From the IMG/VR virus record IMGVR_UViG_3300039165_000048, positions 1 through 64,000 of that record: 64,000 bases of DNA; one strand, given 5' to 3'. Origin of the DNA: a virus (taxonomy: Duplodnaviria > Caudoviricetes). The stretch's first letter is position 1; every line of letters begins with the position of its first letter. The notes under the pieces are model-generated. The model saw nothing but the letters and a program-made list of their open reading frames with translations, did not search any database and was not told the origin of the DNA. Shown here piece after piece: positions 1 through 61,420 of this stretch. Position numbers and translations under genes: made by a program.

Positions 1-633
1 ATACCTGTAAGAATCGACGTTTTGCGCATCGCCGCCATCTACATCCAAAAAGTACTTCATGAGCTTTTTCTTACTGATTTTGCCATCAGAAGTAGCCCAC
101 TCAATTAAATCTTGTTTGGCTTTTTCAGGTGTCCAAGCAACGTCAGCATCGTTCGGTTCATTAGGATAATCATTGATGGGATCAGTTTCTTCAATTACCA
201 TGTCACCAGAAGCGGTAGCATACGCAGAATTTTCCTTGATACCGAGAACGTCTTTCATGCCGTCGGTAAGCATTTCCACACCAAAGTTTTCTTTAGCGAG
301 ACTAGCAGCTCTTTCAGCTAACTTTTCATGCTCAACTCCAGTATGAGAACCCATTGCCGCAGAAAAAGCAGCCTGCAATCCTTCTAGGTCATATTCAGGT
401 TTACCATCTACTATCTTGCCAACAGGATAACTATAATCAGATTCTACTAAACCATCGCCGTCGACCTTCAAAAAATAATTTTCTATTTTTTCTTTTTGAA
501 GATTGCCTTCCTCATCTCTCGCAAAATCAAAAAGTTGACTTTTGCTTGTCGCACCGTCCCAACCATTTTCTTTGATAGGTGGATCTTCCTCGACAACCAT
601 ATCAACAATATCTTTTTTGGTAATTGCAATCAC
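1..633 (-). CDS. Repeat-domain head protein (possible scaffold or prohead-protease-associated), runs off the window edge
   Basis: Not in the ORF track; translated by hand from GTG633 (ATG600 is in frame): ...DMVVEEDPPIKENGWDGATSKSQLFDFARDEEGNLQKEKIENYFLKVDGDGLVESDYSYPVGKIVDGKPEYDLEGLQAAFSAAMG...IKENSAY...AWTPEKAKQDLIEWATSDGKISKKKLMKYFLDVDGGDAQNVDSYRY. Two tandem copies of a W..YFLxVDG..YxY domain. Same strand as, and downstream of, portal and MuF. Confidence 0.6.
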   Translation of the reverse strand, partial: MIAITKKDIVDMVVEEDPPIKENGWDGATSKSQLFDFARDEEGNLQKEKIENYFLKVDGDGLVESDYSYPVGKIVDGKPEYDLEGLQAAFSAAMGSHTGVEHEKLAERAASLAKENFGVEMLTDGMKDVLGIKENSAYATASGDMVIEETDPINDYPNEPNDADVAWTPEKAKQDLIEWATSDGKISKKKLMKYFLDVDGGDAQNVDSYRY

Positions 634-1379: not shown

Positions 1380-3194
1380 ATGTACGGACTAGGAAATATA
1401 GATCTACAAAAATATAATCCATTCCCGAGTTTTCAGTCTGGACAAGCAGAAGCAATAGCCCAGATATTAGGCCACTTTGAGAATGGCCAGAAAGTAGTTG
1501 AGCTTAATGCACCCACCGCTGCTGGTAAGAGCCTAGACCTATTTGTATTGGGCAGGATACTCAGCGAAAAGATGGGTGTTCGGGTAGTTTACACCACGCC
1601 ACTAGTAGCATTAGTCAACCAGCTTGAAAACGAGCCTGCTTTTGGTGCCATGCCAGTCCTGAAAGGCAAGCGTAATTACTTTTGCGGTCCGATGTCCGAA
1701 GTACTTGGCCGGGACATAACAGCGGATGACTGTCCATACGAGAGCTGGGAAGACGCAATCGAAGACTGCTCAAGCTGTGCTCAGTGTCAGTACAGGATAG
1801 CCTACAAGAAGTTCATGGACAGAGGATTTGGGGCCACAACATTAGCTCGCTACCAGATGCCCGGAGCCGTTCGCGACGAAACCGTAATCCTTTTAGTAGA
1901 TGAAAGTGCGGGCTTAGAAAAGGTCCTAATAGACAGAGCCACCCTTAAGATCCCGGACAGGATTAACTTGAACAATTTGTCCGAGAACTTGAGAAGGTAC
2001 TACCACGAATTGGAAGTCGAAATCGAGAAGTTAACACGGGAGGTTAGCCTAGAAAAGGACTTAGCCAGAAAGGTAGCCTTAAACCAGGAAAAGAACAAGC
2101 TCGGTCGTGAATCCAGGAAGTGTGTTAAGGTCCTAGCCCACATAGAAAAAGGCCACCCATACATAATAGACCGCGAGCGAAAGTTCCGGTTGTTAGATGG
2201 CAGATCCGAATTCGAGGACATGATTGAAGGACTACAATATGTAGTACTGGCATCAGGGACACCCACGACCCAGATATTAACCGAAAACTATAAGTCCGTG
2301 GTTATACAGCACCCGATCCCAGTTGAACGCCGGATCTGTTACTACGATCCAGTTGGGTCCATGAACTTTAAGGAAAGACAAACAACAGCACCAAAGATGG
2401 CCCAGAGGATCAATGAGTTACATGAACGGTTCGGCAAGAAAACCATGGTACACTGCGGTGCCTACGTAGTGGCCCAAATGATCTATGATAGTATGCCAAA
2501 CAAGGACATTTGCATACTACAGGATCAATCTGACAGGGAAGGCAGCAAAAACAAGTTCTTGACAACAGAAGGCCAGGCAATCTTCTTGTCCGTGAACTTC
2601 GAGGAAGGCTTAGACCTCAAGGGGCCAGAATACCCATTAAACATAATAGCCAAGTTGACCTTTGAGAACATTGCAGACGAATTCATAAAGGCCAGAAACG
2701 AGCGAGACAACTACAAGAGATACAATTTAAATACTGCAGTTGCTACTATGCAGGCTGCAGGACGGTGTACAAGGTCCGTTAAAGACTACTCCGAAACATA
2801 CATCTTGGATGCAAGCTGGCAGGGATTCTTCAATCGCAATAAAAGACTATTACAGCCTTGGTTCATAGCGAGTTTAAGAATAGGGAACCCGGAAGAAGTT
2901 AAGATAGAAAAGATTGAAACACCAAAAATAGAAATCAATACAGAAAACCAAAAACGACAAGAACAGCCAAAATACGGACAACTTGAAAAAGCCCTTATAT
3001 ACTTAGCAGGGAGGTGCGACGGTGCAATAAAACAAGACGGACAAGGCTTCAATGGTAGAGACACCGAGTTCGGGCACTCGTTAGCGGACCAGATACTAAG
3101 AGGCAGAACACTGAGTCCGAAACAGAGGTCCGCAGCTGAGAGAATGGTTAAGACCTACAAAAAGCAATTAGAAAAGGGTGGCATAATATTATAA
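1380..3194 (+). CDS. DinG/XPD-like SF2 helicase with C-terminal extension
   Basis: Q motif (FQSGQ), Walker A NAPTAAGKS, Cys cluster, variant Walker B LVDES, SGT, EGLDL, motif VI QAAGRCTR, YILD; extra C-terminal CDGA..DGQGFN domain. Confidence 0.85.
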   Translation: MYGLGNIDLQKYNPFPSFQSGQAEAIAQILGHFENGQKVVELNAPTAAGKSLDLFVLGRILSEKMGVRVVYTTPLVALVNQLENEPAFGAMPVLKGKRNYFCGPMSEVLGRDITADDCPYESWEDAIEDCSSCAQCQYRIAYKKFMDRGFGATTLARYQMPGAVRDETVILLVDESAGLEKVLIDRATLKIPDRINLNNLSENLRRYYHELEVEIEKLTREVSLEKDLARKVALNQEKNKLGRESRKCVKVLAHIEKGHPYIIDRERKFRLLDGRSEFEDMIEGLQYVVLASGTPTTQILTENYKSVVIQHPIPVERRICYYDPVGSMNFKERQTTAPKMAQRINELHERFGKKTMVHCGAYVVAQMIYDSMPNKDICILQDQSDREGSKNKFLTTEGQAIFLSVNFEEGLDLKGPEYPLNIIAKLTFENIADEFIKARNERDNYKRYNLNTAVATMQAAGRCTRSVKDYSETYILDASWQGFFNRNKRLLQPWFIASLRIGNPEEVKIEKIETPKIEINTENQKRQEQPKYGQLEKALIYLAGRCDGAIKQDGQGFNGRDTEFGHSLADQILRGRTLSPKQRSAAERMVKTYKKQLEKGGIIL

Positions 3195-3472: not shown

Positions 3473-3564
3473 CGGTTATTTTTCTTTATCTTCTTCCTGT
3501 TCGGGGCCAAGACGCAATATTTTTATAGACTTTTCATTATTTTCAATAAATTTATTATCTTTTT

Positions 3565-6500
3565 TCATACAATCGCCTTTATAGTAGTTATTTTAACATG
3601 TTTCGCAGATCTATCTTTATACGATCCATTGTTCGGTGGTATAATGTCAGTATATCGTGTTTCTACAACTTTGAACTTGGTTCCACGATTCACTAAAATT
3701 TCAAACTCGTTTGGTAATCCGCTTTCTTCTGCAATAAATAAAGCCTTTGTACCGCTAGGCAATTGCAATTCTAATAATCTACCCATTCTTCCATTTTCAT
3801 CTGTTGTGAAGTTATTTGCCATGAATGGTAATGCTGACGTTGAACTAAAGCATGGAAACTCAATTTCTGATCCAGGAGTATCCAACGCATTTACTAACTC
3901 CGGATATTTTGATAATGTTTTATTAGATATTCCCCTATACGTAACTAATGGCTCCGATAAGTCGGAATTAGTAAATAATTTATCTAATTTTTCTATGAGT
4001 TGTTTTGATTCTTTTACAATAGCTTTATCAAATACATCATTACTATTTTCCATGTCTTTCATGGAACCATTTAAATATTCGTTTATTTGATGAAATCTAC
4101 CACCACTATACATAGTTAGTACATGGCGGTCATTTTTACTAAATTTTTTAAGTGGTTCCGCTGCTTTATTTAGTGATGCTTGTATCTGTTTGTTGGCTTC
4201 AATATCTTGAGGAGAGGAAAAATCGTGATCGGCTTTGAAACCAATGAATGTTTCCGAAGTGTGTTTTGAATCAGATGTATTGCTTTTTTCTTGCTCTTCC
4301 GGATTACACTTGTTGGAATCATCGACGGTTCCCTTTGGACACTTATAATTGAGTTTTATTGTTTCAAAAGCATCAGATAGGTAAGAGGAATTTTGTTTTT
4401 CTATAATAGATTCTACATCCCCAGGAACCCAGATTTCACCAGCGCCACTTAAACTAGGTATGATTTCATTAGTAGGAACTTCGTATTCATAAATGCTTTC
4501 TACGCCCATGCGCTTTTGATAGGCTTCTGCGACTTGTTTGTTTGGGAAAAAACTATTTGTCATGCCAGTTTTGGCTCGTCCAACTCTGTATAAAGTAGTT
4601 TTTTCCGGTATATCTAGTCCAAAGTGTTCGTGTAGTAAATAAGACTTGAGAAGTTTGTTGTTTTGTACAACACTTATAGCATCTTCACGAGCTTCTGGTT
4701 CTATGTTTCTTAACCATTTATCACCTAACTTATTAAATAAATTGTATTCTGGACTGCCTTCTACCTTTTCTTTTATCATGTCATATATTTCTGGATCGAC
4801 TTTCCAAAGTCTTGCATAAAATTCTAAACCATTTTCGGACTTGTTGTTTGATGATATAGGAAACATAGTAATATTTTTATGTTCATTACCAGAACTTCCT
4901 CCGCATGATCCTGGACCACTTCCAATTTTTTCAGAGTCCGGACAGTTATAATTCAGCTTGATGGTCTCAAAGGCATTAGCTAGGTAAGAGGAATCTTGTT
5001 TAGATTGATTTTGTTTATTATATGGTATAATTTCCCATACAACATTTGATTTATATGTGGAAGCATTTCCTCTGTATACATTATTATTATATTTATTATC
5101 AACAATTTCGAAATATCCTTCAACCATACTAACAGGTCTTCCGATATATACTTCTGTTATTGATTCATCCGAAATTTTTCCACGTATTCCTATTTCGCCT
5201 TCTGTAGTGCCCTTTTCATGATTTCCAGGATCTTTAATTTTAATCATAATAGCAGGTTTGTCTATTGTTGGTGCATATTGCCAAGGTGCGAATCCAGATG
5301 CATAATTAGCGGCAGTACTTTTTTCATCCGAAAAAAATGTCATATCGCCTTGAAAATCAAAATTATATTGTGCCTCTGTTTTTATATAACCATTATTTTT
5401 AATGCCTTCAAATTCTTCATAAGACATACCCCTAAATAAATAGCCTTTCTCTTTGCCGGAAGGTAACTTCATTTGATTTTCTATTTCTGGATTAATTGGT
5501 ATAACAACAGTACTTTTTCCATTTCCGAATGGAATTTCTTTCATATATGTTGGATCATACCAAATATTTTTATCATCCAATGCATCTTTTTTGTTTTTCC
5601 ATTCAATTGGTATTTTTTTTGGAATTACCCTTATTTTATATACTGTATCATACATACCTTGTTTTTTTTCTGTTTTAAATTTAAATTCATTTCTAGATAC
5701 CGCCTGTTTTGCTGATTCAAATTCCTTGCCCAATTTCAAATCTTGCGGAACACCATCAAATATTGGTTTTTCGGGTTCGTGTTTTTCATTTGGTTTGTTT
5801 CCTCCACAGCTTCCAGGTCCTGATCCAATCTTTTCTGAGTCCGGGCAGTTATAGTTAAGTTTCATGAAGTTAGTAACATCTTCCAAATATTCAGAATTTT
5901 GTTTCTGTTCATTAGTTTTTATATGAGCATTATACTCCAAATATAATCGATCATCATCCGCCGGTCTAATATATACTTGATCAATTACAATTGTTTGGTC
6001 ACGTCCTATTAAATATTCATCTATTTTTCCACCCAATTCGTCTTCAAGTCCTGTATAATCTGCTATTCGAATTGCTGGAGTGCCTTTTGGCACAATTAAA
6101 TTAATCAAGCCAGTTACGCCATATTTACTAATATCTCGGGACGGAGCAAGAAATCTATTCATAGTATTTTCTTTGTCACTACCAGTTGATAAATATGCTT
6201 TTTCCGTGTACTCATAACCAACTAATTTTTCTCGAATTTTATCTATCAGTTTATGATTTTTTATGAAATCTTCTAGGGTTAAACTTTCTTTTCCGAACGT
6301 ATCTTTAAATATGTTTGTTAATCCGGTCTTTTCAAACGCATCTGATGATATACCAGCGCTGTCTGCTCTAAATACCAATTTATCTGACTTTAATGGATTA
6401 TTTTCCATTTCAGAATCAATTGTTTTTATCATGTTCTGTATATTTTTAGTTTGCTGAGGATTTTGTTTAACATGATTAGTTTTTCTTAAATAATCGTTTA

Positions 6501-7644
6501 TAGCAGTGTATGCATAATTTTGATAGTCAGACAAAGCTTTATATGGTGTTATGGGTTCGGGATCAGTGACGATATCGTTAGTAATCTTTGCGTTGTCTGG
6601 GTTACGCAATTTTTCTTTCTCTAATTCTAAATCGAGTTCTTTCTGAATACTTTTATATTGCTCATAGGCTTCATCGAAAGTAGATTTTCCTTCCGAAACA
6701 GATTTCTCTAGTTCACGTATCTTATTTTTAAGCGTAGATACTTTATCTAGGTTAGAAGTATTGCCGCCAGAACAACTACCTGGACCCGATCCTATTTTCT
6801 CGTCGTCTGGACAGTTATAGTTAAGCTTTATTGTGTTTACCACATCGTCCAAGTATGCACTATCTTCTTTCATTTCGTTATAATCATCCTCTGAATACGT
6901 AACCATTGAACACCTGCATTGCGGGTGTCCCGTTGCAGTCATTTCTCCGTTACTAAAAGGTTCATTTATAGGCACGGTTTCCATGTCGTGTGACATACAC
7001 AAATCACAGCTACGTTCGTCACCAACTGCCCGCCATTGTTTGTATTTGTGATCGGCGATTTTGGCACGTTCCAATACCCCATTATATTCTGCAAGGTGGC
7101 GCTCACTTCGATAAATGTTTTCTAGCCGTGATTTACTAACTGGATATGAATCTTGAAATTCTTTTGAAAATGCATCAGGACCCTTGCCCCAATTATTTAT
7201 TAGGTCCTGTTTCATACTATTTAAATCTGTTTTTGTTAACGATTTACATAATTCGAGGCCATGTTCTGCAAAATATTTTTGTGCAAAATTTACAATTTGT
7301 TTTGGATCGGGAGCAGGTTCTTGTACGGTAACAACGGGTTGTGGTACAGACGGTTTTCCTGACATGCCGTTAATGATTCCAGGTAGTATAAATGGAGTAA
7401 AAATAGTTAACCATAATTTGTAATTCTTTGATATTAATTTGGGGGTTATGTCTTCTTGAAGTTCGTTCCATATATCCAATAAATCTTCTGGAATATCATC
7501 GATATTGATATCAATATTATTTTGTATATCATTGAGTTTTTCTTGGAAGCTTTTAGATTTAGATATTGGCGATAATGGGACTTTGGGAATTGTTTTTATA
7601 GTGTTTGGTACTATTTTAATCGGCTTTTTGGTGGTGGCTGGCAT
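3565..7644 (-). CDS. MuF/SPP1 gp7-like minor head protein fused to four ADP-ribosyltransferase-like domains
   Basis: MuF signature KQWRAVGDERSCDLC...HPQCRCS. Four repeated linkers K[EQ][DN]SxYL...KLNY[NK]CP. Domains 1 and 4 are VIP2-like (domain 4: INEYL, YRG, FSSTS, EFEILVNRG). Domains 2 and 3 have divergent R-S-E-like motifs (LFRGMS..FFS..GEI; LYRVG..SFF..GEIWV). Start set at ATG7644 because of a GAGGA RBS; the track start is 7668. Confidence 0.85.
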   Translation of the reverse strand: MPATTKKPIKIVPNTIKTIPKVPLSPISKSKSFQEKLNDIQNNIDINIDDIPEDLLDIWNELQEDITPKLISKNYKLWLTIFTPFILPGIINGMSGKPSVPQPVVTVQEPAPDPKQIVNFAQKYFAEHGLELCKSLTKTDLNSMKQDLINNWGKGPDAFSKEFQDSYPVSKSRLENIYRSERHLAEYNGVLERAKIADHKYKQWRAVGDERSCDLCMSHDMETVPINEPFSNGEMTATGHPQCRCSMVTYSEDDYNEMKEDSAYLDDVVNTIKLNYNCPDDEKIGSGPGSCSGGNTSNLDKVSTLKNKIRELEKSVSEGKSTFDEAYEQYKSIQKELDLELEKEKLRNPDNAKITNDIVTDPEPITPYKALSDYQNYAYTAINDYLRKTNHVKQNPQQTKNIQNMIKTIDSEMENNPLKSDKLVFRADSAGISSDAFEKTGLTNIFKDTFGKESLTLEDFIKNHKLIDKIREKLVGYEYTEKAYLSTGSDKENTMNRFLAPSRDISKYGVTGLINLIVPKGTPAIRIADYTGLEDELGGKIDEYLIGRDQTIVIDQVYIRPADDDRLYLEYNAHIKTNEQKQNSEYLEDVTNFMKLNYNCPDSEKIGSGPGSCGGNKPNEKHEPEKPIFDGVPQDLKLGKEFESAKQAVSRNEFKFKTEKKQGMYDTVYKIRVIPKKIPIEWKNKKDALDDKNIWYDPTYMKEIPFGNGKSTVVIPINPEIENQMKLPSGKEKGYLFRGMSYEEFEGIKNNGYIKTEAQYNFDFQGDMTFFSDEKSTAANYASGFAPWQYAPTIDKPAIMIKIKDPGNHEKGTTEGEIGIRGKISDESITEVYIGRPVSMVEGYFEIVDNKYNNNVYRGNASTYKSNVVWEIIPYNKQNQSKQDSSYLANAFETIKLNYNCPDSEKIGSGPGSCGGSSGNEHKNITMFPISSNNKSENGLEFYARLWKVDPEIYDMIKEKVEGSPEYNLFNKLGDKWLRNIEPEAREDAISVVQNNKLLKSYLLHEHFGLDIPEKTTLYRVGRAKTGMTNSFFPNKQVAEAYQKRMGVESIYEYEVPTNEIIPSLSGAGEIWVPGDVESIIEKQNSSYLSDAFETIKLNYKCPKGTVDDSNKCNPEEQEKSNTSDSKHTSETFIGFKADHDFSSPQDIEANKQIQASLNKAAEPLKKFSKNDRHVLTMYSGGRFHQINEYLNGSMKDMENSNDVFDKAIVKESKQLIEKLDKLFTNSDLSEPLVTYRGISNKTLSKYPELVNALDTPGSEIEFPCFSSTSALPFMANNFTTDENGRMGRLLELQLPSGTKALFIAEESGLPNEFEILVNRGTKFKVVETRYTDIIPPNNGSYKDRSAKHVKITTIKAIV

Positions 7645-7793
7645 ACTGTCCTCAAAAAAATAATACAATCAAAGTATTGTTTTATAACGTTCGGTATTAT
7701 ATTTTTCTTTTTTATTTTTATTATATACGACTATGTTATTATTATTTAAAATTGTTATTCCGTCAACTTCGTTATCTTCTAAAAGTAACTTCA

Positions 7794-9056
7794 TTATATC
7801 GCCTTCCAGTGAATTATCCTATATTTATCATTTTCTTCTATGTTTTCTATTTTAAATTGTTGACCAGTATTTAATAATATTTCCTCTTCATAATAATTTG
7901 AATTAAGATGCTTAGTCATATCCATAGCAGGTGTACCTTTTGGTATTTCACATTTTATTATATTTATTTTAGAATCTTTATTTTTCTGATTTGTTATCGC
8001 AAAATCATATGCAACAGCAATATTTTTAGAAGTTGAAGTAAAACGAGAACATTTGATTTCTGATCCAATTTTCATGCCCTTGGACACTAATTTATCATAA
8101 GCAGAATCCGAAATACCACGAAATGTGATAACATTATTTTCAATTTTATTTGAATTTATTATAGAACTTAATCTATTTATAAATTCAACACATTTTTTAG
8201 GTTGATTTTTTGAGTCTATAGTTCTATTAACTGTTTCATAATGTTCACTAGAATAATATTCTAATATACAATCAGTATCCCAATTTTTAATAGGAACGTA
8301 ACTATATCTTTTTTGTAGTGGTTCTAGTTCATTCAATATTACAATTTCTTTTTTTTCTGCGATTTTAGGATCTTTTTCATTTTTATATATTGTACTTATC
8401 TTGTTTTCTAGTTCTTTTATTTTAGTTTCTCTTTCTTTTTTCATATCTTCTTGGTATTTTTTTAATGGATCTAACTTGGGATTATCCAATATAAATTGTT
8501 GACGGTGTATTGGATTAGTTATTTGAGATATCTCATTAAGTTCGGAGGTTATTCTATCGATAGTCTTATTAGTATGAGGTTTTGATTCATTATCTGCAAA
8601 ATTTGTTTTTGATTTTTTATTTTTTTCTTTGATTTCGTTGTAAGTGTCTTTCTGGTGATTCAAGTTATTAAATTCTTTTAATGCAAGATCTTTAATATTT
8701 TTTAACTTTTTATACTCATTTGATGTAGTATCATAATTGTGTTCATTCAGATATTTATTTTCTTCTTTGAAAGCCTTTGAATATATAGATTTTGCTATTT
8801 CTAGTTTAGAATTTAAGTTATCATAATCTTTTTTTGTTATTTTTGAAGTATTTTTAGGCACCGATTTACTTTTGCTAGAAGGTAACTTTTCTTTTTGTTG
8901 TTTTTCATAATTCTTCTTAGCTTCTTCTGGCGTTTTGCCGCAACTAAAAGAACCTTCTTCAACGGTGCCTTCCTTGCATTTATAATTAAGCTTGATGCTA
9001 AATGGTTCCAGGTCTAGTTGATAAAAGGCACCTTTCTTACCAAGGAATTTATACAT
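7794..9056 (-). CDS. VIP2-like ADP-ribosyltransferase with shared N-terminal leader
   Basis: Leader MYKFLGKKGAFYQLDLEP..IKLNYKC; coiled-coil middle; C-terminal TFRGIS, FTSTS, PKGT, EEEILL. Confidence 0.85.
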   Translation of the reverse strand: MYKFLGKKGAFYQLDLEPFSIKLNYKCKEGTVEEGSFSCGKTPEEAKKNYEKQQKEKLPSSKSKSVPKNTSKITKKDYDNLNSKLEIAKSIYSKAFKEENKYLNEHNYDTTSNEYKKLKNIKDLALKEFNNLNHQKDTYNEIKEKNKKSKTNFADNESKPHTNKTIDRITSELNEISQITNPIHRQQFILDNPKLDPLKKYQEDMKKERETKIKELENKISTIYKNEKDPKIAEKKEIVILNELEPLQKRYSYVPIKNWDTDCILEYYSSEHYETVNRTIDSKNQPKKCVEFINRLSSIINSNKIENNVITFRGISDSAYDKLVSKGMKIGSEIKCSRFTSTSKNIAVAYDFAITNQKNKDSKINIIKCEIPKGTPAMDMTKHLNSNYYEEEILLNTGQQFKIENIEENDKYRIIHWKAI

Positions 9057-9061
9057 TGTGT

Positions 9062-9172
9062 TTACTCCAAAAATTTTTCAGGAACATTTTTTAATGTCAA
9101 TATTTCTAATTGAGACGGTACACCAAAACCCAGGAAATACATCTTACCCGGTTTACCAAGAAATTTATACAT
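9062..9172 (-). CDS. 36-aa leader-only mini-ORF of the ART cassette family
   Basis: MYKFLGKPGKMYFLGFGVPSQLEILTLKNVPEKFLE; GGAGG RBS; first 12 aa match the ART leaders. Confidence 0.6.
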   Translation of the reverse strand: MYKFLGKPGKMYFLGFGVPSQLEILTLKNVPEKFLE

Positions 9173-9218
9173 TTTATTCCTCCGGAACCTTATATACATA
9201 ATTATTTCCTCATTATTT

Positions 9219-10169
9219 TCATAAATGAGCTTCTAATATTATATGAGATACTGATCCTACTTTTTTGTTATTCAAAACGCTAAATCTCATATTTCTGTTT
9301 AACGTAATTTCTTTTTCTGATTTATATTGGTCATCTCTAGTATAATTTTCTATTGATAACGCTTTACTACCTTTTGGTAGGCGTATTTCTAACATAGCAG
9401 AATTTTCACCTTTCGCAAATGTTGATGCCATATTTTTATCAGGTGTAGTAGGTATAAAGGATTCTAATTTAAATTCTGATCCTTCAACTAATTTATCTGA
9501 TAAATTTTTAAAAACATTACTATTTATTCCTCGATATACTGTTGTGGCTTCCGGTAACTCTACTTTTCTAAATATATTGTCCATATTATTAATTATATTC
9601 TTTACTTCCTTTTCATCATACATAGATTCTTCGTCTATTTTCCCAGTACGTAAATATGAATTAATGTCTTTGGAATCAACACTATAACTTTTAATAGCAT
9701 CTTTTTGATTGTTTGTTAATTTTGAAAATAACTTATCTGAATATTTAATTAATGTAATTGGTGTTTCTCCTGAGGTCGCTTTGTTAGCAATATCAGAAAC
9801 GTTTGAATGTTTATCTGGTCCAGTTGTTTTATTGGATTCCAGTTTATTGTTTTTATTCAATTTTTCAATTTCTTTTTCTAGTGCTAGTTTTTTTCTAACG
9901 TATGATTCATAGAGTTTTTGACCTTTTCCTTTATCCCACATTTTTGGTCTAGCGATAAGCATTTTTCGTTCGATTACGGCATATTCAGCTTTAGCAGAAG
10001 AAAGTTGTGCTGCAATATCCGACCCTGTTTCAATATCTGATCCGCCACAAGAGCCAGGTCCCGATCCGGATTTTTCTGAATCAGGACAGTTATAATTAAG
10101 CTTTATGCGAATTGGTTCCAGGTCTAGTTGATAAAAGGCACCTTTCTTGCCAAGGAACTTATATAACAA
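9219..10169 (-). CDS. VIP2-like ADP-ribosyltransferase with shared N-terminal leader
   Basis: Leader YKFLGKKGAFYQLDLEP..IKLNYNCPDSEKSGSGPGSCGG; INSYLR, VYRGI, FIPTT (variant STS), LPKGSKAL, EKEITLNR. Confidence 0.85.
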   Translation of the reverse strand: MLYKFLGKKGAFYQLDLEPIRIKLNYNCPDSEKSGSGPGSCGGSDIETGSDIAAQLSSAKAEYAVIERKMLIARPKMWDKGKGQKLYESYVRKKLALEKEIEKLNKNNKLESNKTTGPDKHSNVSDIANKATSGETPITLIKYSDKLFSKLTNNQKDAIKSYSVDSKDINSYLRTGKIDEESMYDEKEVKNIINNMDNIFRKVELPEATTVYRGINSNVFKNLSDKLVEGSEFKLESFIPTTPDKNMASTFAKGENSAMLEIRLPKGSKALSIENYTRDDQYKSEKEITLNRNMRFSVLNNKKVGSVSHIILEAHL

Positions 10170-10187
10170 TTATTATCACTACCTAAG

Positions 10188-11048
10188 TTAAACTTTTTTA
10201 TTTTTTTTATCTAGAACAACATCAACATCAAGATACGTTATTCCTGTTTCTTTGTCTATAAAATTTTTAGTAACCTTAAAAGATGTTTCACGAGGTAATG
10301 TCCATTCTCTTTCACCTAAAAATTCTGTATTAACGATTGAAGTAGGTGCACATGAGGTACCTCGCGGAACATTTATTCTTAGCAATACTGCACCTTCTTT
10401 TATAGCATCATTTTTGTTTGCACTTAGAAAACTTTTTGCATGATTGATATTTTCTGTAGTACCTATAAAACCTTTATCTTTGAAAGTACTACCAACTTTT
10501 TGTTTTAATAATTGTTTTACTCCTGTTATTCCGCGGTATGTTTTTATATTATTATTTGTTTTAAATTTACTTATTGCAGAATCAAGACTCTTTATTACAT
10601 TTTTAGTTTCAGGATTAATATTATCAAAAGACTTACTTTTCCTCAAAATTTCATTAATAGGTGTTGACCAACCAGTACCAACCCAATTTTCATGAAGTGC
10701 CTTATATTCATTAAAAGATAGTGAATTATTATAATCAATTATATCTTTTTTAGAATGAGATGTATAATAATTTATATTTCTTGTACCAGACGCAGAATCT
10801 AAATCGTCTTGGGATTTTATTGCATCATCATATATTTTTTCATTAATCTGCGGAACTTCTGATATTTTATTATTATCATCATCTAGAAAATAATTATTAT
10901 TATCTGATTTATTTTCTTTTGATCCTCCACAGCTTCCTGGTCCCGATCCTACTTTTTCAGAGTCCGGGCAGTTATAATTTAATTTTATTGTAGTGGTTTC
11001 TGAATCCAGGGAATACATTTTGCCGGGCTTGCCAACAAATTTATACAT
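10188..11048 (-). CDS. VIP2-like ADP-ribosyltransferase with shared N-terminal leader
   Basis: Leader MYKFVGKPGKMYSLD..IKLNYNCPDSEKVGSGPGSCGG; INEILR, TYRGI, FIGTT, VPRGT, EREWTLPR. Confidence 0.85.
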   Translation of the reverse strand: MYKFVGKPGKMYSLDSETTTIKLNYNCPDSEKVGSGPGSCGGSKENKSDNNNYFLDDDNNKISEVPQINEKIYDDAIKSQDDLDSASGTRNINYYTSHSKKDIIDYNNSLSFNEYKALHENWVGTGWSTPINEILRKSKSFDNINPETKNVIKSLDSAISKFKTNNNIKTYRGITGVKQLLKQKVGSTFKDKGFIGTTENINHAKSFLSANKNDAIKEGAVLLRINVPRGTSCAPTSIVNTEFLGEREWTLPRETSFKVTKNFIDKETGITYLDVDVVLDKKNKKV

Positions 11049-11053
11049 TATGT

Positions 11054-12865
11054 TTACTCCTCAAGAACTTTGTCAAAGTACTTGGTCTTCTTAAGTATTT
11101 TCATGACGTCATTTTCAAGACTTCCCAGAATGTCTTCTGCTTCCGCGTCTAGTTTGTTTGGGGTTACAATGTCATCAAGGGTTTTGTTTTGTTTTATAGG
11201 GCTAGATTGAAATTCCATGCCCATAGGTTCCGAAAACTTATTAGAATCGTCAGGAATCGTTTCTGGAACAGTTTCTAGGCCAGTTTCTGGTTCAGTTGGT
11301 TCTTCAGCCATATTTCCTCTGCCTAGCAGTGCTTCTAAGTCCATGCCGCCCATTTCAGGACTTCCCATTCCCATTCCGGGCATTCCACCTTGTTGCTGCT
11401 GACCAGCCATCGGATTTCGCCACAACGCAAGTTCTTTTTCAAGAATTTCGCGAACGGTTAGGCCTTCCATCCAGGGAGCAGGATCCAGGGCGGGTAATCC
11501 AAGTTCTTCGCGAGCTTCATCAAGGGTAATAACGTGGTTAGTAAAACGTTGCAATGCTATGTTTTGTTTTACTTGTTCATCCTGGGGAATCAGGTCATCC
11601 CATTCAAAGGTTACTGACCAACCTTCATATCCATTATATTCCAGGAATTTATTCCAGATTTGTTCTTGGAACGCCTTGGAACACATGTTCTGCCAGCCCT
11701 GCACCATCATCTTGAGGAGTTGCAACAATGGCTGAGATGTCGCAGAAATTGCTGCCGCTTGAATTTCCAGCATATCTCGCGGGAATATATGAGAAATGGC
11801 TTCCTTAATAAGATAGTTGTCAATTTCTGTTGGATTGAAGGCCACATGACCCTGGTCCCAGCTAAGGTCTATACCGCGCGGTACTGCAACAGCGAGGTCC
11901 GCAGACTGATTTTCCACGAGCTGTCTAGCATAATCCCAGAGGTCTGTTAACATTATGTCGGCGGTATTTGATCCGGCGCCAGGTATTGCACTTGTAACGG
12001 ATAGCGGTACACCGCTTGCATTCTTGAGGGCATCCAGATATTCTGGAGGTACGCCAACTGTTGCAATTTGTTTTGGAGATCCAATTCTGGAAACAGTTTG
12101 CATGACACGCTTCCTTACAAATTCCAACTGGGAGATAGTGCTAACGATGCCTTGTAGATATGGCTCGCCGTCTACAAAAGGCGACGACTTATCCTTGATG
12201 TGAATAACTTGTTCAGTTGGAATATTAATTGGAATACCGGTGGTTCCGTAGTTGTTTTGAAGTTGCCAGTATTCATAGGACTTTGATTTTTTATTGTAAA
12301 TAATGCCCTTCAGTATATGCCCCACCATATATTTGTCACGGTCACCTTCGGCTTCTGGCGGTGCCTGCTTAAATGAAGCAGCCGGTAACCTATTCACAAC
12401 GTCGGGAACTATGTAACCGTCGTCGTCTTCCTTCCAGGTAACTTCTCCGATAAAAGATCCATACGTCATAATGTCGTAAAGGGCTTGTACGCAAAGTATG
12501 GTGGTGTCGATGTTGTGGTCCAGTTCATTGAGTTTCGATAAAATTTCATTAACAGTATCTGGATCTTCTTCTATGTCATCAGGCGGATTTAACTTAAAAT
12601 CAAATCTTGGAAACGCAATCAACTGTAATTGCCATAAGGAGCGGGCAACAGGTGGTGCCCTAGCAGTCTGTTCCAACAGCTTTATATCTATACGATTACC
12701 AGAATAAAATGAATATATATTTGGGAAAGGAGCGCCAACTGCTGCAGCCGTTATACTACTTCCACCATTGCCAACCGACGTCACTTGTGCGCCCGGCTTT
12801 TTCTTTAAGAAAGCCCGTGGTTTTTTCTTGGGCATTGTTGGAACCATATACTTTATTTCAGTCAT
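11054..12865 (-). CDS. Phage portal protein
   Basis: 603 aa; IPTEQVIHIK..DGEPYL, ITLDEAREELGLP and an acidic low-complexity tail are typical of portals; directly upstream of the MuF cluster. Confidence 0.75.
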   Translation of the reverse strand: MTEIKYMVPTMPKKKPRAFLKKKPGAQVTSVGNGGSSITAAAVGAPFPNIYSFYSGNRIDIKLLEQTARAPPVARSLWQLQLIAFPRFDFKLNPPDDIEEDPDTVNEILSKLNELDHNIDTTILCVQALYDIMTYGSFIGEVTWKEDDDGYIVPDVVNRLPAASFKQAPPEAEGDRDKYMVGHILKGIIYNKKSKSYEYWQLQNNYGTTGIPINIPTEQVIHIKDKSSPFVDGEPYLQGIVSTISQLEFVRKRVMQTVSRIGSPKQIATVGVPPEYLDALKNASGVPLSVTSAIPGAGSNTADIMLTDLWDYARQLVENQSADLAVAVPRGIDLSWDQGHVAFNPTEIDNYLIKEAISHIFPRDMLEIQAAAISATSQPLLQLLKMMVQGWQNMCSKAFQEQIWNKFLEYNGYEGWSVTFEWDDLIPQDEQVKQNIALQRFTNHVITLDEAREELGLPALDPAPWMEGLTVREILEKELALWRNPMAGQQQQGGMPGMGMGSPEMGGMDLEALLGRGNMAEEPTEPETGLETVPETIPDDSNKFSEPMGMEFQSSPIKQNKTLDDIVTPNKLDAEAEDILGSLENDVMKILKKTKYFDKVLEE

Positions 12866-20952: not shown

Positions 20953-21354
20953 ATGGTAAGTACACGATGGACACATAGTACAACCACCGTCTATAACATC
21001 GGATACCACATTATTTGGTGCCCTAAATATAGACGGAAGGTTCTTGTTGATGTTGTAGAGGAAATGCTGAAACTTCTCCTCTACAAAAAGGCATACGAGA
21101 TAGGTATCTCCATTGAAGAAATGCAGATTATGCCAGACCACGTTCATCTATTTGTCAAAGCACCACCAACCGCAAGCCCACATTGGATAGTTCAACAACT
21201 GAAGGGCTATACTTCCCATGAATTGAGAATGCAATTCACGTCGTTGAAAACCAGGCTTCCCACCCTGTGGACTCGCAGCTACTACATTGAATCTTGTGGG
21301 CATATCTCGGAAGATACCGTCCGAAAGTACATCGAGGAGCAAAAGAAGAAATGA
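20953..21354 (+). CDS. tnpA: IS200-type HUH (Y1) transposase TnpA
   Basis: YHIIWCPKYRR, MPDHVHLF (HUH), KGYTS, LWTRSYY, YIEEQ. Confidence 0.95.
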   Translation: MVSTRWTHSTTTVYNIGYHIIWCPKYRRKVLVDVVEEMLKLLLYKKAYEIGISIEEMQIMPDHVHLFVKAPPTASPHWIVQQLKGYTSHELRMQFTSLKTRLPTLWTRSYYIESCGHISEDTVRKYIEEQKKK

Positions 21355-22358
21355 TCCTAACCTACAAAATCAAGCATGGTAGGGACTTCTCAGATGAACT
21401 GAGAAAGGCTAGGAAGGTGGCAAAGTTTGCTATCCAGACTCATAGCCTTAGCTCCAAGGATGTCAAGCATATTGGTTTGAAATCGATGATCTCTAACCAG
21501 ATTCTCAGAAAGTATAGCCGAAGCAATACCGCCAAATCTGTTAAGAGTGTCAAACTCGCAGTACCTAACCAGGGAATCAAAGTGGATCGAGATACAAAGA
21601 CCATATCGGCACCATGCTTGAAGCTTTCACTAAAATATGAGTTTCCTGATAACTTTGAGAAGGTCAATCAAATCGAAGTTGGCGAGGAATATGCCTATGT
21701 TTCAGTGTCCATTCAAGAAACAGAACTCATTAAGGCTGAGAAATGGATAGGGGTAGATCGAAACACCGTAGGACATATAGCCGTAGTTGCTGATCCCGAA
21801 AGTGGCAAGGTCATCAAGCTCGGAAAGTCCGCTCTCCACATCCATCAGAAATACAAGAACATTCGCAAAGGACTTCAGAAGAAAGGCAAATATGGCAAAG
21901 TCAAACAACTCAAGGATCGGGAAAGTCGAATAGTCAAGGATATCAACCACAAGGTATCCAGAAAGATCGTTGATACTGCCAAAGAAACTGGCAAAGGTAT
22001 CAAACTTGAAGATCTAACCGGAATCAGGAACGGCAAGCATAACTCAAAATCATTCCGCTATGCTAAGAACAGTTGGTCATTCTATCAAATCCAAAGCCAG
22101 ATAGAATATAAGGCTAAGCTGCTTGGTGTAGAAGTCGCTTATGTTGATCCGGCATATACTTCAAAATCATGCAGTAGATGCGGACTCATCGGAGACAGGA
22201 ACAAAAAGAATTTCAAGTGTCCTCATTGTGGGCACGTTGATCATGCTGACAGCAATGCGGGATTCAATATCGCAAAGCGTCCGTGCATAGATCGATTGCA
22301 TACAGACAGGGATGTATGCAAAGGGACCACTGATAGCCCTAAAGTTGCTCTGGCTTGA
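21351..22358 (+). CDS. tnpB: TnpB RNA-guided endonuclease
   Basis: RuvC-I IGVDRN, RuvC-II LEDL, YTSKSCSRCG..CPHCG Zn finger, HADSNAGFNI; ATG21351 overlaps the tnpA stop. Confidence 0.93.
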   Translation: MILTYKIKHGRDFSDELRKARKVAKFAIQTHSLSSKDVKHIGLKSMISNQILRKYSRSNTAKSVKSVKLAVPNQGIKVDRDTKTISAPCLKLSLKYEFPDNFEKVNQIEVGEEYAYVSVSIQETELIKAEKWIGVDRNTVGHIAVVADPESGKVIKLGKSALHIHQKYKNIRKGLQKKGKYGKVKQLKDRESRIVKDINHKVSRKIVDTAKETGKGIKLEDLTGIRNGKHNSKSFRYAKNSWSFYQIQSQIEYKAKLLGVEVAYVDPAYTSKSCSRCGLIGDRNKKNFKCPHCGHVDHADSNAGFNIAKRPCIDRLHTDRDVCKGTTDSPKVALA

Positions 22359-25604: not shown

Positions 25605-27212
25605 TTAGCCTGTCCAGCCGCCTCCAGTTCTTATAACTCTTTTTGGAATCCTTGTTGGAATAGAAACATTATTAGTAAACGTTGATAGGTAAAACAAAGC
25701 CTGTGTCATGCTATCAACCTGGTCGTCGTTTTTTCCAACCGGGAACGATGCAACTTCTTCCAAAAAATCATGTATCCAATCGGCGTTTTGTGGCATAGGT
25801 AACCATACGTTACCGGCTTCCACGTATGGTGTAATTGCGCGTGCCCTAACTACCTTTCCGCCTTGTGGTTCGACGGGAATAAGACCGGGTACAGACCGTT
25901 TTAACATAGTTATTATCGCAGGACCATTCGCCTTATCTTCTATGAGTTTTGCGGAAGATGTCGGCCATTTCGTTGAAAGCGTTGTAATACTTTGCATAGT
26001 GGCAATGACGTCCATTTGGGCACGAACCTGATCAAGTAAATAGAAGTCGGATTTTTTTCTTCCCCATACTTGACCGACGACATAATCAGTGTCTTCCGCA
26101 TCTTTGAAAGTGCAATCCCATGATTGTATTATGATATCCATATGGGGTTCGAGGTCTTTTGGTTTTTGGATGTAGAATTGGTTTTTGTGGGTTGGATCGA
26201 TGTCACCGGGTATTCCCCACCAGCCCCTATTAAATATGGCACCGCCCGATGGACTAGGATGCTGTTGGTAAAGTGACGCCCAAGTATAAGAACCGGCGCT
26301 AATTTTAGTAGCTTCCAATTCCTCAGCATTTCCGAAACGTTCGGGCCATAACGCTTCGCCGACTTGCCGTGGATCTTGTGGTTCCAGTGGATATTCAGCG
26401 ATCATTGGGAATTTTAATACTGTCCATTGTTCCGCTTTCGGATTAGATGCTGCTAACGCAAGGAGTCGACCGGACAAATCGTCTTCGTGCCACCTAGTTT
26501 GCGTGATCAATATACGGGCATCCATATTAAGTCGTCTAGTATAAAAGTCGTCTTTGTACCAATTATAGATACCGTTGCGAATGGTTTCTGATTCAGCGTC
26601 TTTCCTGCCACGAATTGGGTCATCAATAATACCATAAAAGAATCTTTTACCAGTGATAGATCCACCAACACCAGCGCACTTATAATAACCTACATGGTTT
26701 ACAATTTCAAAATTTTCAGTATTTCGTTGGTATGATCCGGATGTTGATATTGTTTTTACGTTTTTGCCGGATAGCAAAGTTTCTGGGAAAAGTTCGCGAT
26801 ATAAGTCATCGTCTATAATTCGCTGGACGTCTCTATTCATGTCGGATGCGAGTGAAGCAGAATAACTTGTGGCCATTATACCAATGTCGGGATTCTTGCC
26901 GAAGATCCAGGCGGGCAATCTTCTGGAAACCAATTCAGACTTACCGCTACCGGGCGGTAGAAAAATCATAAGTCGTTTTATGTCGCCAAATGCCCAGCGT
27001 TCCAAGTAATCACATATGATCTTGTGGTGCCAATTAACAGAATAATCTGGTTTTGTGTATAAGGTAAAGTCTAGTAAGTGTCTTCTTGCTTTTGCTTTTT
27101 GTATTGCAATGTCTCCTCTTTCTCCAAGTAACCAGGGAGCAATGTCACCACTAGGGGTTAAGATCGGCGACTTCAATACAGGAAGTGGATTTTCAAGTTT
27201 TGTTTTTTTCAT
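25605..27212 (-). CDS. terL: Terminase large subunit
   Basis: Walker A PPGSGKSEL, GVGGSITG, Walker B IIDDP, TRWHEDDL, nuclease SWD, IEDKANG, FPVGKNDDQVD. Start revised to ATG27212 (track 27311). Confidence 0.93.
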   Translation of the reverse strand: MKKTKLENPLPVLKSPILTPSGDIAPWLLGERGDIAIQKAKARRHLLDFTLYTKPDYSVNWHHKIICDYLERWAFGDIKRLMIFLPPGSGKSELVSRRLPAWIFGKNPDIGIMATSYSASLASDMNRDVQRIIDDDLYRELFPETLLSGKNVKTISTSGSYQRNTENFEIVNHVGYYKCAGVGGSITGKRFFYGIIDDPIRGRKDAESETIRNGIYNWYKDDFYTRRLNMDARILITQTRWHEDDLSGRLLALAASNPKAEQWTVLKFPMIAEYPLEPQDPRQVGEALWPERFGNAEELEATKISAGSYTWASLYQQHPSPSGGAIFNRGWWGIPGDIDPTHKNQFYIQKPKDLEPHMDIIIQSWDCTFKDAEDTDYVVGQVWGRKKSDFYLLDQVRAQMDVIATMQSITTLSTKWPTSSAKLIEDKANGPAIITMLKRSVPGLIPVEPQGGKVVRARAITPYVEAGNVWLPMPQNADWIHDFLEEVASFPVGKNDDQVDSMTQALFYLSTFTNNVSIPTRIPKRVIRTGGGWTG

Positions 27213-27268
27213 GGTAGCGCAACCAAAAACTATTAATATGCGTAAGCGTAATGTTAACTTGGTGATGG

Positions 27269-27613
27269 ATGTTGAAAATGATAAAGCCTGATGCAAATGG
27301 CGCATTCCCAATAATTAATGATGACCTTGATAGTAAGATTATTGTAGTGGTTGATGAATATAACGAGGAAAGATTACCGGTATCATATTTTCTGCTGGAG
27401 AACCAAAGCAAAGTACTTTATCATATACCGTCTATGAATGTTGTAAATACTCACGTGAACTTATGTCGAACTGAATTAAGTGATTATCAGAATTTGTTTA
27501 GGATACTGGGTTCGAAATATAAACCATTGTGGGCAACTACCCATTTTATTATATTTGATAGTGTATATGAATACAATGATTGGAAAGCGAAGACTATTTA
27601 CATGAGGGAGTAA
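27269..27613 (+). CDS. Hypothetical protein
   Basis: Promoter ACCAAAAACTATTAATA near 27222. Confidence 0.55.
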   Translation: MLKMIKPDANGAFPIINDDLDSKIIVVVDEYNEERLPVSYFLLENQSKVLYHIPSMNVVNTHVNLCRTELSDYQNLFRILGSKYKPLWATTHFIIFDSVYEYNDWKAKTIYMRE

Positions 27614-60203: not shown

Positions 60204-61420
60204 GTCAACTACCCGCCAATGAATTGGCAGGCTTGTAGCTGATGGTTAGTTAGCTCGCTACGATTGGCTGGTTGACGGACAGCCTGCTACGATCAGATCT
60301 ACTGAAGGTAGCGATGTTTCTGGATGCATTCAAATCAGCATCGATCTGGAAGCCGCAGCGTTTACATTTGAAGGTCCTACCATTACGGTTTTCTTTCTTT
60401 TGAAACCCACATTTAGAGCATGCACGAGAAGTATATCTTGGATCTATGGCAACTACCTTCTTTCCGATAGCAGCAGCTTTGTATTCTACGATACTTCGTA
60501 GTTCTGCAAAGCTCCATTTACCTAGCTTCTTATTCTTCTTACCGTTCCTGATGTGAGTTAGATCTTCCAGAGCAATTACGTCAAATGGTTTAGATAGTAT
60601 CCAGTTTGCGATTTGATGGTTACAGTCCTTCTGAAACAGTCTCTCTCGACCCGAAAGCTTCTGAAGCTTTCGTTTAGCTGATCGAGTGCCTATGGACTGA
60701 AGTTTTGATCTCAAATATTGATATTTGCCTTTAACCGCCTTAACAGGTCCAGACTCCCAAAACGTGTTATCGCTACATACTGCTATGTTATTGATTCCAA
60801 GATCTACACCAATCCTCCTATCCCCTGTGATGATTTCTGTATCAGGTTGCTCCACTTGAACGTTTAGGTAGCAAGCATTCTTGGTAATCTTTAACTGAGC
60901 ATTCGTGACTTTCCAAGTGGCATATTTCTGATAATAGTCTGCTAACTGGAAATCATATCGCAGTCTACCAAAAACAGTGGTGAGCTTGCAGTATCCAGAT
61001 TCCAAGAACACCTTCATGGTCCTAACGTCGAATCGGACAGCACCGAGAGGATGCTTGAAGGGCTTAGTTTCAAATTTGAGTCTCTTAAGCATGTCACTGG
61101 CTTGATCCCTCGCGGTTTGGATAAGGGCAGAAGGTAGTGTAGAATACTTCTCTCGGAGACCTTTGTATGTAGCTTTGTTGAGTCTGGTTTTGTTGTAATC
61201 ATGTGCCGCAAAGCCATAGTCTATGACATCCTGGCAGGCGGAATTCCAAAGCCGCGCTGTCTGGATCAGTTCATTAGACCTATCGAGCTTTATCTTAATA
61301 GTTCGGTACATGTTAATAGATAGTTAATACCTTTATTAGATTTATAGTTTTTGGTAATTAAACAAGGGCATGATTCATCCCACGACTGAAGTCGCGGGTA
61401 TTCTCTACCCCTTGACCCCG
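60204..61420 (-). mobile_element. Solo-tnpB (IS1341-like) element
   Basis: Left-end hairpin CCCGCGACTTCAGTCGTGGG; right-end hairpin CCTGCCAATTCATTGGCGGG then TAGTTGAC; no tnpA. Confidence 0.85.
60250..61311 (-). CDS. tnpB: TnpB RNA-guided endonuclease
   Basis: IGVDLGI, ALEDL, YTSRACSKCG..CKRCG, DADLNASRNI. Confidence 0.93.
   Translation of the reverse strand: MYRTIKIKLDRSNELIQTARLWNSACQDVIDYGFAAHDYNKTRLNKATYKGLREKYSTLPSALIQTARDQASDMLKRLKFETKPFKHPLGAVRFDVRTMKVFLESGYCKLTTVFGRLRYDFQLADYYQKYATWKVTNAQLKITKNACYLNVQVEQPDTEIITGDRRIGVDLGINNIAVCSDNTFWESGPVKAVKGKYQYLRSKLQSIGTRSAKRKLQKLSGRERLFQKDCNHQIANWILSKPFDVIALEDLTHIRNGKKNKKLGKWSFAELRSIVEYKAAAIGKKVVAIDPRYTSRACSKCGFQKKENRNGRTFKCKRCGFQIDADLNASRNIATFSRSDRSRLSVNQPIVAS

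Follow-up and report, generated by a model that had tools for sequence, protein, structure and literature searches.

How does a tailed virus come to keep seven enzyme-like modules beside its portal gene, and why is each of them headed by the same short peptide? The question is raised by a block of four minus-strand genes in IMG/VR virus record IMGVR_UViG_3300039165_000048. Positions 1 to 64,000 of the record (hereafter the window) are the first half of the genome of an uncultured virus, assembled as a single contig of 126,632 bp that is about 90% complete according to CheckV. The block, at 3565-11048, lies between the portal gene (11054-12865) and an oppositely oriented helicase gene (1380-3194), and each of its modules follows a cysteine-loop peptide that we call the tag. 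An earlier note on this DNA had assigned the block to the head module, and it does adjoin both the portal and a MuF head-morphogenesis domain. The block is head-associated and modular. From its gene position, from fusions of tagged modules to MuF and to a scaffold-like head protein, and from the literature on T4 Alt, on fusions of MuF with ADP-ribosyltransferases (ARTs) and on polyvalent proteins, we infer packaging, cleavage and injection; on this basis we lean, guardedly, towards the view that the tag is a combined loading and cutting signal and that the block would encode internal capsid cargo of an archaeal tailed virus, cut apart and injected. The features of the block are as follows.

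10188-11048, minus strand: stand-alone cargo 1, 286 amino acids (aa); leader and tag (10905-11048), then an ART (FIGTT, ERE); PF03496 E 3.6e-17, span 10215-10757; tag domain E 1.5e-25.
9219-10169, minus strand: stand-alone cargo 2, 316 aa; leader and tag (10023-10166), then an ART (FIPTT, EKE); PF03496 E 6.7e-23, span 9222-9734; PF01129 E 3e-5; tag domain E 1.2e-24.
9062-9172, minus strand: leader-only remnant open reading frame (ORF) (MYKFLGKPGKMYFL...) lacking both the Cys loop and any cargo; its sequence matches the leader of stand-alone cargo 1.
7794-9056, minus strand: stand-alone cargo 3, 420 aa; leader and type-2 tag (8913-9056, CKEGTVEEGSFSC), a coiled-coil spacer, then an ART (FTSTS, EEE; 7830-8264); PF03496 41.8 bits; phrog_832 E 7e-5.
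3565-7668, minus strand: MuF polyprotein ORF, 1367 aa; its homologues begin at Met9 (7644), so that the true start is probably this Met9, which gives 1359 aa.
6904-7644, minus strand: MuF domain of the polyprotein; PF04233 44.6 bits (cut-off 29.6) and many PHROG minor-head or MuF families.
6748-6891, minus strand: tag 1 (KEDSAYL...IKLNYNCPDDEKIGSGPGSC); like tags 2 to 4, located by motif, unit alignment and genome profile.
5932-6543, minus strand: module A, an ART (LSTG); PF03496 E 5.4e-16, 61.5 bits.
5782-5925, minus strand: tag 2.
5020-5781, minus strand: module B (segB), a beta-rich N-domain and a predicted ART-fold domain (about 5011-5451; FRG, FFS, EGE); AlphaFold model.
4879-5022, minus strand: tag 3.
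4417-4878, minus strand: module C (segC), a small alpha+beta domain (YRVG, NSFF, GEIWV), possibly an ART; no match to a hidden Markov model (HMM), low-confidence structure model.
4276-4419, minus strand: tag 4, with the type 2 loop CPKGTVDDSNKC.
3655-4152, minus strand: module D, an ART (FSSTS, EFE); PF03496 E 1.7e-21, 77.3 bits.

The tag reads K-L-N-Y-[N/K]-C-x10-12-C and occurs in seven copies, all within 3565-11048: four in the MuF polyprotein (KLNY[NK]C at aa 281, 603, 904 and 1105) and three at the head of the stand-alone genes (aa 22-23). A profile of the tag unit, run over the six frames of the 126.6-kb genome, retrieved just these seven copies (domain E 3e-17 to 1.5e-25) and one leader-only remnant, which bears out the earlier reading of four tagged modules in tandem behind MuF and three standing alone. 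The conserved unit is longer than the motif given at that time: over an aligned 48 aa, K8, Y13, L14, K22, L23, N24, Y25, C27 and C40 are invariant, and the polyprotein copies also have K-Q/E-N/D-S-x-Y-L thirteen residues upstream. In the stand-alone genes the tag follows a leader of about 24 aa, MYKF.GK...Y.LD....IKLN, and leaders of the type MYKF[ILV]GK were found on ART, GNAT and other cargo. Nucleotide identity between tags is 42-82% over 72 nt, and identical residues share the same codon between copies in only about 45% of cases; since synonymous sites are thus scrambled, the comparison indicates selection on the tag peptide, not on its DNA, and it rules out recent duplication or gene conversion as the source of the tags' identity. 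Tag residues have a predicted local distance difference test (pLDDT) score below 50 in both AlphaFold models that contain a tag (modules B and C), and the tag is accordingly predicted to be disordered and to behave like a linear motif. A lipobox, a signal peptide and intein-like N|C autoprocessing were ruled out from the sequence, the tag being internal and the residue before Cys being N or K; 40 predicted-disordered residues are also too few for a HINT or intein fold. The tag matches no Pfam or PHROG family, and tblastn found none in deposited phage and archaeal virus genomes.

What do these tags precede? The earlier note had counted seven ART-like domains, and its central motifs (LSTG, FSSTS, FTSTS, FIPTT and FIGTT) are all present as it gave them. 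Five modules match PF03496, the Alt/VIP2/exoenzyme type, at 41.8-82.2 bits (cut-off 23.4), while segB and segC are unmatched, and a genome-wide scan with PF03496 revealed no ART beyond these five. The catalytic order YRG/FRG, STS-like motif and ExE can be read in module D and in proteins P0002, P0003 and P0004; module A has FRA, LSTG and DEY without ExE, and cargo 3 is linked to other ART modules by BLAST. A sixth module is an ART by its predicted fold: the AF2 model of module B (pLDDT 79) matched ART structures almost exclusively, over residues 138-284 in its C-terminal half, with VIA-align Z scores of 9.7 for TreX, 9.3 for KptA, 8.7 for pertussis toxin S1 and 8.3 for LT, about 45 of the 50 top rows being ARTs. 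Members of its family keep the motifs FRG, [YF]F[SA] and ExE. The model of module C is poor (pLDDT 61); no ART match exceeds Z 5.7, and helical noise is interspersed with these matches, so that the module is possibly an ART and no more than that. Structure modelling of the tag-bounded segments, proposed in the earlier note as a check, therefore upheld the ART fold for segB and left segC in doubt, and the count stands at six ART modules, five by sequence and one by fold, plus module C as a possible seventh. Sequence searches of segB, segC and P0002 against the PDB gave no significant match; Foldseek on the segB and segC models gave none at E<=0.001, with ARTs dominating the weak rows; and scans of IMG/VR returned 0 loci for segB and 1 locus for segC.

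The tag is by no means confined to this genome. An exhaustive tag-profile search over 1.84 billion cluster representatives (E<=1e-3) recovered it in 227 metagenomic protein clusters, where it heads more than 250 modules, with up to nine tags per protein in proteins of up to 3123 aa. Among 256 tag instances in the 169 sequences examined, about half are N-terminal and half internal, both cysteines are nearly invariant, and the loops fall into two classes, PDSEKxGSGPGSC and [PK]xGTVDDSNKC. MuF is present in 22 of 46 long tagged proteins and PF03496 in 58 of the 140 tagged proteins scanned. Cargo segments number 221: 99 Alt/VIP2-like ARTs, 24 members of the module B family, 14 of the module C family and a remainder in about 50 further clusters. 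The earlier note had suggested surveying other cargo with an HMM of the tag: ART-PolyVal (PF18760), GNAT, RelA/SpoT, YbaB and HExxH peptidase domains also stand behind it, and such non-ART cargo fits a portable address. The longest of these proteins, P0028 (L015:4538-13909), is a 3123-aa MuF polyprotein with a weak LAGLIDADG_3 match in its MuF region (aa 498-560), which may mark an intein or a homing endonuclease inserted ahead of the first tag.

Comparison of relatives then shows how the modules move. P0022 and P0026 are 95-96% identical to the polyprotein until residue 910, inside tag 3, and diverge beyond it; P0035 is 98% identical as far as tag 2 and likewise diverges. The cargo DNA of the 10188-11048 gene is at least 98% identical to that of its homologue in the related contig L003, against only about 53% for the first 150 nt, which encode leader and tag. 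Conversely, in P0017 the leader and type-2 tag of the 7794-9056 gene precede another ART, and in P0012 and P0014 they precede GNAT domains. Modules B, C and D recur at other positions and as solo genes; the module C cassette stands alone in P0174 and P0175, with other architectures in P0036, P0052 and P0023. Because homology between relatives breaks at the tags, the sequences argue that modules are shuffled between relatives as cassettes, and the tag is indeed interchangeable, as had been proposed, heading fused and solo modules alike. The leader-only ORF at 9062-9172 is probably all that remains of a cassette since deleted; the solo cassettes number two in L003, as against three and this remnant here. 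Untagged homologues of module B were also found: in P0171 and P0173 another N-terminal motif, ...W-N-E-D-A-HPRDDHGRW... or ...Y-S-E-DQPR...GGQF, sits where the archaeal tag would be and is followed by a Gly run, and one untagged homologue belongs to a cyanophage 'large polyvalent protein' (Planktothrix phage Pag-Yong1). Since it occupies the exact position of the archaeal tag, the HPRDDHGRW/DQPR...GGQF element looks like a bacterial-phage counterpart; the 'DQPR/HPR...G.W' motif after MuF is absent from the MuF protein of Arthrobacter phage Edmundo.

A second carrier, beyond anything in the earlier note, came to light on the far side of the helicase gene.

1-633, minus strand: N-terminal part of a scaffold-like head protein of about 716 aa, the rest lying at the other contig end, G000 126276-124762 (L004:16763-18631).

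Homologues of this protein (P0056, P0089, P0101, P0120 and P0020) contain canonical tags followed by inserted modules at two hot-spots, one after FTERHMSA and the other between ...YVKSGKIP and the C-terminal coiled coil; the window copy and L003 keep only remnants at both, IKLNEY and KQNKCN. In one alignment of six related sequences of the scaffold-like family, K-x-N tripeptides are invariant in 8 of 11 cases as against 17% of background residue pairs (Fisher p 6e-5), and outside the conserved core in 7 of 10 as against 8% (p 1.7e-6). They sit at domain joints, in the context [IA]K[LMEY]N[SE], and it is this conservation at the joints that points to K-x-N as probably a maturation cut site. The stand-alone leader MYKF.GK... 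resembles the YVKSGKIP.SMKLN junction of the same protein. A GACS-x3-GCGF (C-x5-C) motif is likewise invariant in this protein, whose core looks weakly like DUF2213. Its tentative assignment as a scaffold is based on its position in the head module, its coiled-coil C-terminus, matches to phrog_233 (E 3e-3) and DUF2213 (E 0.012), and ESM Atlas leads towards clusters of S78, Mu-like_Pro and YonD_N. The window copy had no match when scanned against Pfam and PHROG, and the profile of the protein found only a spectrin-like coiled coil among PDB sequences.

How might these parts work together? We propose that enzyme modules, mostly ARTs, would enter the procapsid by one of three routes: fused to the portal-associated MuF domain, inserted, as in relatives, into the scaffold-like head protein, or, when free-standing, by means of the leader of about 24 aa that resembles the scaffold-like junction peptide. 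Every module begins with a junction element of about 40 aa made of one or two K-x-N/D motifs, the C-x10-12-C loop and a Gly/Ser linker. A putative maturation protease would cut at K-x-N/D, and the freed modules, which would keep the Cys loop at their new N-terminus, would leave the capsid together with the DNA; early in infection they would modify proteins or nucleic acids of the host. The junction element would also define the module boundaries, and because it is constant, cargo cassettes could be swapped between positions, carriers and viruses.

Several points weigh against this proposal. The prohead protease families S78, S77, ClpP and Mu-like_Pro went undetected in the roughly 90%-complete genome, the assignment of the 716-aa protein as a scaffold or protease-scaffold is weak, and the K-x-N statistic has the narrow base given above. 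A simple cut site needs no pair of nearly invariant cysteines, and targeting is redundant for modules already fused to MuF. Nor is every tagged gene in a head module: in a 154-kb relative, P0021 (L001:10001-10813) has non-structural neighbours, namely genes of nucleotide metabolism (Metallophos, PRTase, dCMP deaminase, RNA ligase). A bolder form of the proposal sees in the Cys-loop element a portable 'load, cut and eject' address that would be peculiar to one clade of archaeal tailed viruses. Whatever protein stood behind it, on MuF, on the scaffold-like protein or free with the 24-aa leader, would be built into the capsid interior, released by a cut at K-x-N and delivered to the host, and the cysteines would have a dedicated role, for example as an ejection signal or in a metal site to which the scaffold-like protein also contributes; we entertain this form tentatively, as possible and no stronger than that. 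If true, it would constitute a second, independently evolved system for addressing capsid cargo, next to the capsid-targeting sequence of T4, and archaeal viruses would have their first.

The alternative that survives best supposes that the tag is a cargo-loading peptide only and is never cut, the Cys loop binding the capsid interior, the portal or the scaffold-like protein and perhaps completing a shared metal site with the C-x5-C of the latter; in principle it would then resemble the cargo-loading peptides of encapsulins. The near invariance of both cysteines across the 256 instances, an HK97/encapsulin-like major capsid protein, the invariant GACS...GCGF motif of the scaffold-like protein and the failure to find a protease in the genome would all suit such docking. 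Against it, modules fused to MuF need no dock of their own, the K-x-N part of the tag is found again, this time lacking cysteines, where the domains of the scaffold-like protein join, and metal sharing is pure speculation; we regard docking without cleavage as unlikely, though it deserves to be taken seriously.

It could also be argued that the tag has no part in assembly, being a demarcation or recombination motif or a tolerated linker whose conservation reflects cassette exchange. Demarcation motifs such as VENN and PxxxxDPxGL are known in polymorphic toxins, homology breakpoints coincide with the tags here, and the same cargo is found behind different tag versions just as the same leader and tag are found before different cargo. 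What is conserved, however, is the peptide and not the DNA, given the 42-82% identity over 72 nt and the scrambled synonymous sites already described, and a passive linker would not hold K, N and two C invariant across 227 clusters. Demarcation is moreover compatible with an assembly role and the two can coexist; as a full account of the tag we find it improbable.

Least probable of all, and in our opinion very doubtful, is that the modules are MuF-type polymorphic toxins for competition between cells or viruses, released at lysis rather than injected and with immunity encoded elsewhere: the MuF and toxin architecture (PMC5576092), a conserved small ORF after the polyprotein and cargo families common to Rhs and polymorphic toxin ARTs (TreX, TreTu) speak for it, but four toxins in one MuF protein and three solo genes face a single 30-aa downstream ORF, Macro and ARH genes are absent from the genome, the virus is large, with replication genes of its own and no integrase near the block, and tags occur in the scaffold-like protein as well. 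The small ORF is the following.

3476-3568, minus strand: 30-aa highly charged ORF (MKKDNKFIENNEKSIKILRLGPEQEEDKEK) overlapping the polyprotein stop codon.

It is near-identical in L003 (L003:15320-15415), though the adjacent ART module is only 66% identical. Between the genes of the block and after them, the same strand has no ORF of more than 45 aa, and no Macro or ARH gene was found in the genome, in keeping with the earlier statement that immunity genes are lacking.

Returning to the combined loading and cutting signal that we favour, we may ask how it compares with systems already described. The earlier note knew of no described system with this layout, but precedents exist. Polyvalent proteins, known from phages and conjugative elements, combine several effector domains in one polypeptide, and their genes stand among those for packaging and the head (Iyer, Burroughs, Anand, de Souza, Aravind 2017, PMC5512222); ART is their commonest enzyme, MuF fusions are common and packaging and injection were predicted (PMC5512222), and MuF-ART fusions and head-packaged ARTs have likewise been described (PMC5512222, PMC9503650). 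The resemblance is close, with MuF and four modules in 1359-1367 aa between portal and capsid genes, the segB family in the Pag-Yong1 'large polyvalent protein' and ART-PolyVal (PF18760) in tagged relatives. The difference is that here each module is headed by one Cys-loop tag common to solo genes and scaffold insertions, and that the host is probably archaeal. The new element is thus the repeated tag and not the multi-enzyme head protein: the word 'linker' has 0 occurrences in PMC5512222, and we found no description in the literature of a conserved peptide heading every module across polyproteins, solo genes and a scaffold-like protein. In the one bacterial case checked, the polyvalent protein of cyanophage Pag-Yong1, there is no internal repeat.

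Phage T4 provides the nearest parallel for an address, in the form of a capsid-targeting sequence on Alt and on the internal proteins IPI-III that is removed by the gp21 prohead protease. T4 Alt is an ART injected with the DNA (PMC5512222, PMC9503650). As in T4, unrelated proteins, an ART among them, have a short N-terminal leader whose last residues form a motif (here K-L-N) found again in other head proteins. Unlike in T4, the leader has no sequence similarity to the T4 one, no S77 protease was detected here, and the tag is also internal and repeated in polyproteins and has a two-cysteine loop. Jamet et al. 2017 (PMC5576092) describe MuF polymorphic toxins in bacterial temperate phages only, with a single toxin at the C-terminus and, in most cases, a small immunity ORF after it. 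These toxins share with our locus an N-terminal MuF beside the portal gene, a variable toxin region behind it and the exchange of toxins between phages; they differ from its four tandem modules and three solo genes, its want of a credible immunity gene and its archaeal setting. Encapsulin cargo-loading peptides, which are short, disordered and usually C-terminal, route diverse enzymes into the lumen of an HK97-fold shell; they are not known to have a Cys loop or to be part of virions or polyproteins.

The genomic setting of the block can be summarized with two further genes.

11054-12865, minus strand: portal protein, 603 aa, at the upstream end of the block; weak matches to Pfam Phage_portal/Portal_Mu and to phrog_12.
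1380-3194, plus strand: helicase (DEAD/Helicase_C_2), dividing the head module, with the MuF polyprotein on one side and the scaffold-like protein on the other.

Beyond the helicase lie, in this order, the head protein of about 716 aa, which spans the contig ends, a protein of 228 aa and a major capsid protein of the HK97 type. The gene for the large terminase subunit occupies 25605-27311. The gene order, with portal and MuF on one side of the block and scaffold-like and major capsid proteins on the other, is kept in L003 and L015, and the interruption by the helicase is also kept in L003. All hallmark genes have their best or only relatives in viruses assigned to methanogens or anaerobic methanotrophic (ANME) archaea: the best database relative of the portal is that of Caudoviricetes sp. 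vir525 (host Methanosarcinales), the polyprotein MuF is 40% identical to the MuF of the same virus, the capsid protein is 42% identical to that of ANMV-1 and the terminase 46% identical to that of vir524 (host Methanomicrobiales). For this reason the assignment to an archaeal virus, made in the earlier note, is a reasonable one, the host being not proven. Hosts taken from metagenome-assembled genome bins of related contigs were mutually contradictory (Bacilli, Bacteroides, Endomicrobiaceae, Methanofastidiosum) and were set aside, as these bins probably contain mis-binned viral contigs. The contig ends, 1-356 of the window and G000 126277-126632, are nearly but not perfectly identical over about 350 bp, which suggests that the genome is circularly permuted or terminally redundant and that its assembly drew on a mixed population. 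The viral genome also encodes two TnpB / IS605 OrfB proteins with a Cas12f-like TNB domain (21294-22358, plus strand; 60250-61311, minus strand) and, at G000 114594-117751 (L004:6595-9752, minus strand), two adjacent paralogous phiEco32-like COOH-NH2 ligases (PF14395, E 6e-19 and 2e-17).

To our knowledge, the way in which tailed viruses select proteins for the capsid has been worked out in very few model phages and in no archaeal virus. An address of 40 aa that heads more than 250 metagenome modules would be a handle for listing the injected arsenal of these viruses, and because this arsenal is dominated by ARTs, it hints at host takeover or anti-defence based on nicotinamide adenine dinucleotide (NAD) in methanogen and ANME hosts. 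The tag offers a testable motif for cleavage and loading and, possibly, a tool for loading foreign proteins into capsids. Finally, the locus would extend the polyvalent-protein strategy into the archaeal virosphere, with a mechanism of cassette exchange that is visible in the sequences of its relatives.

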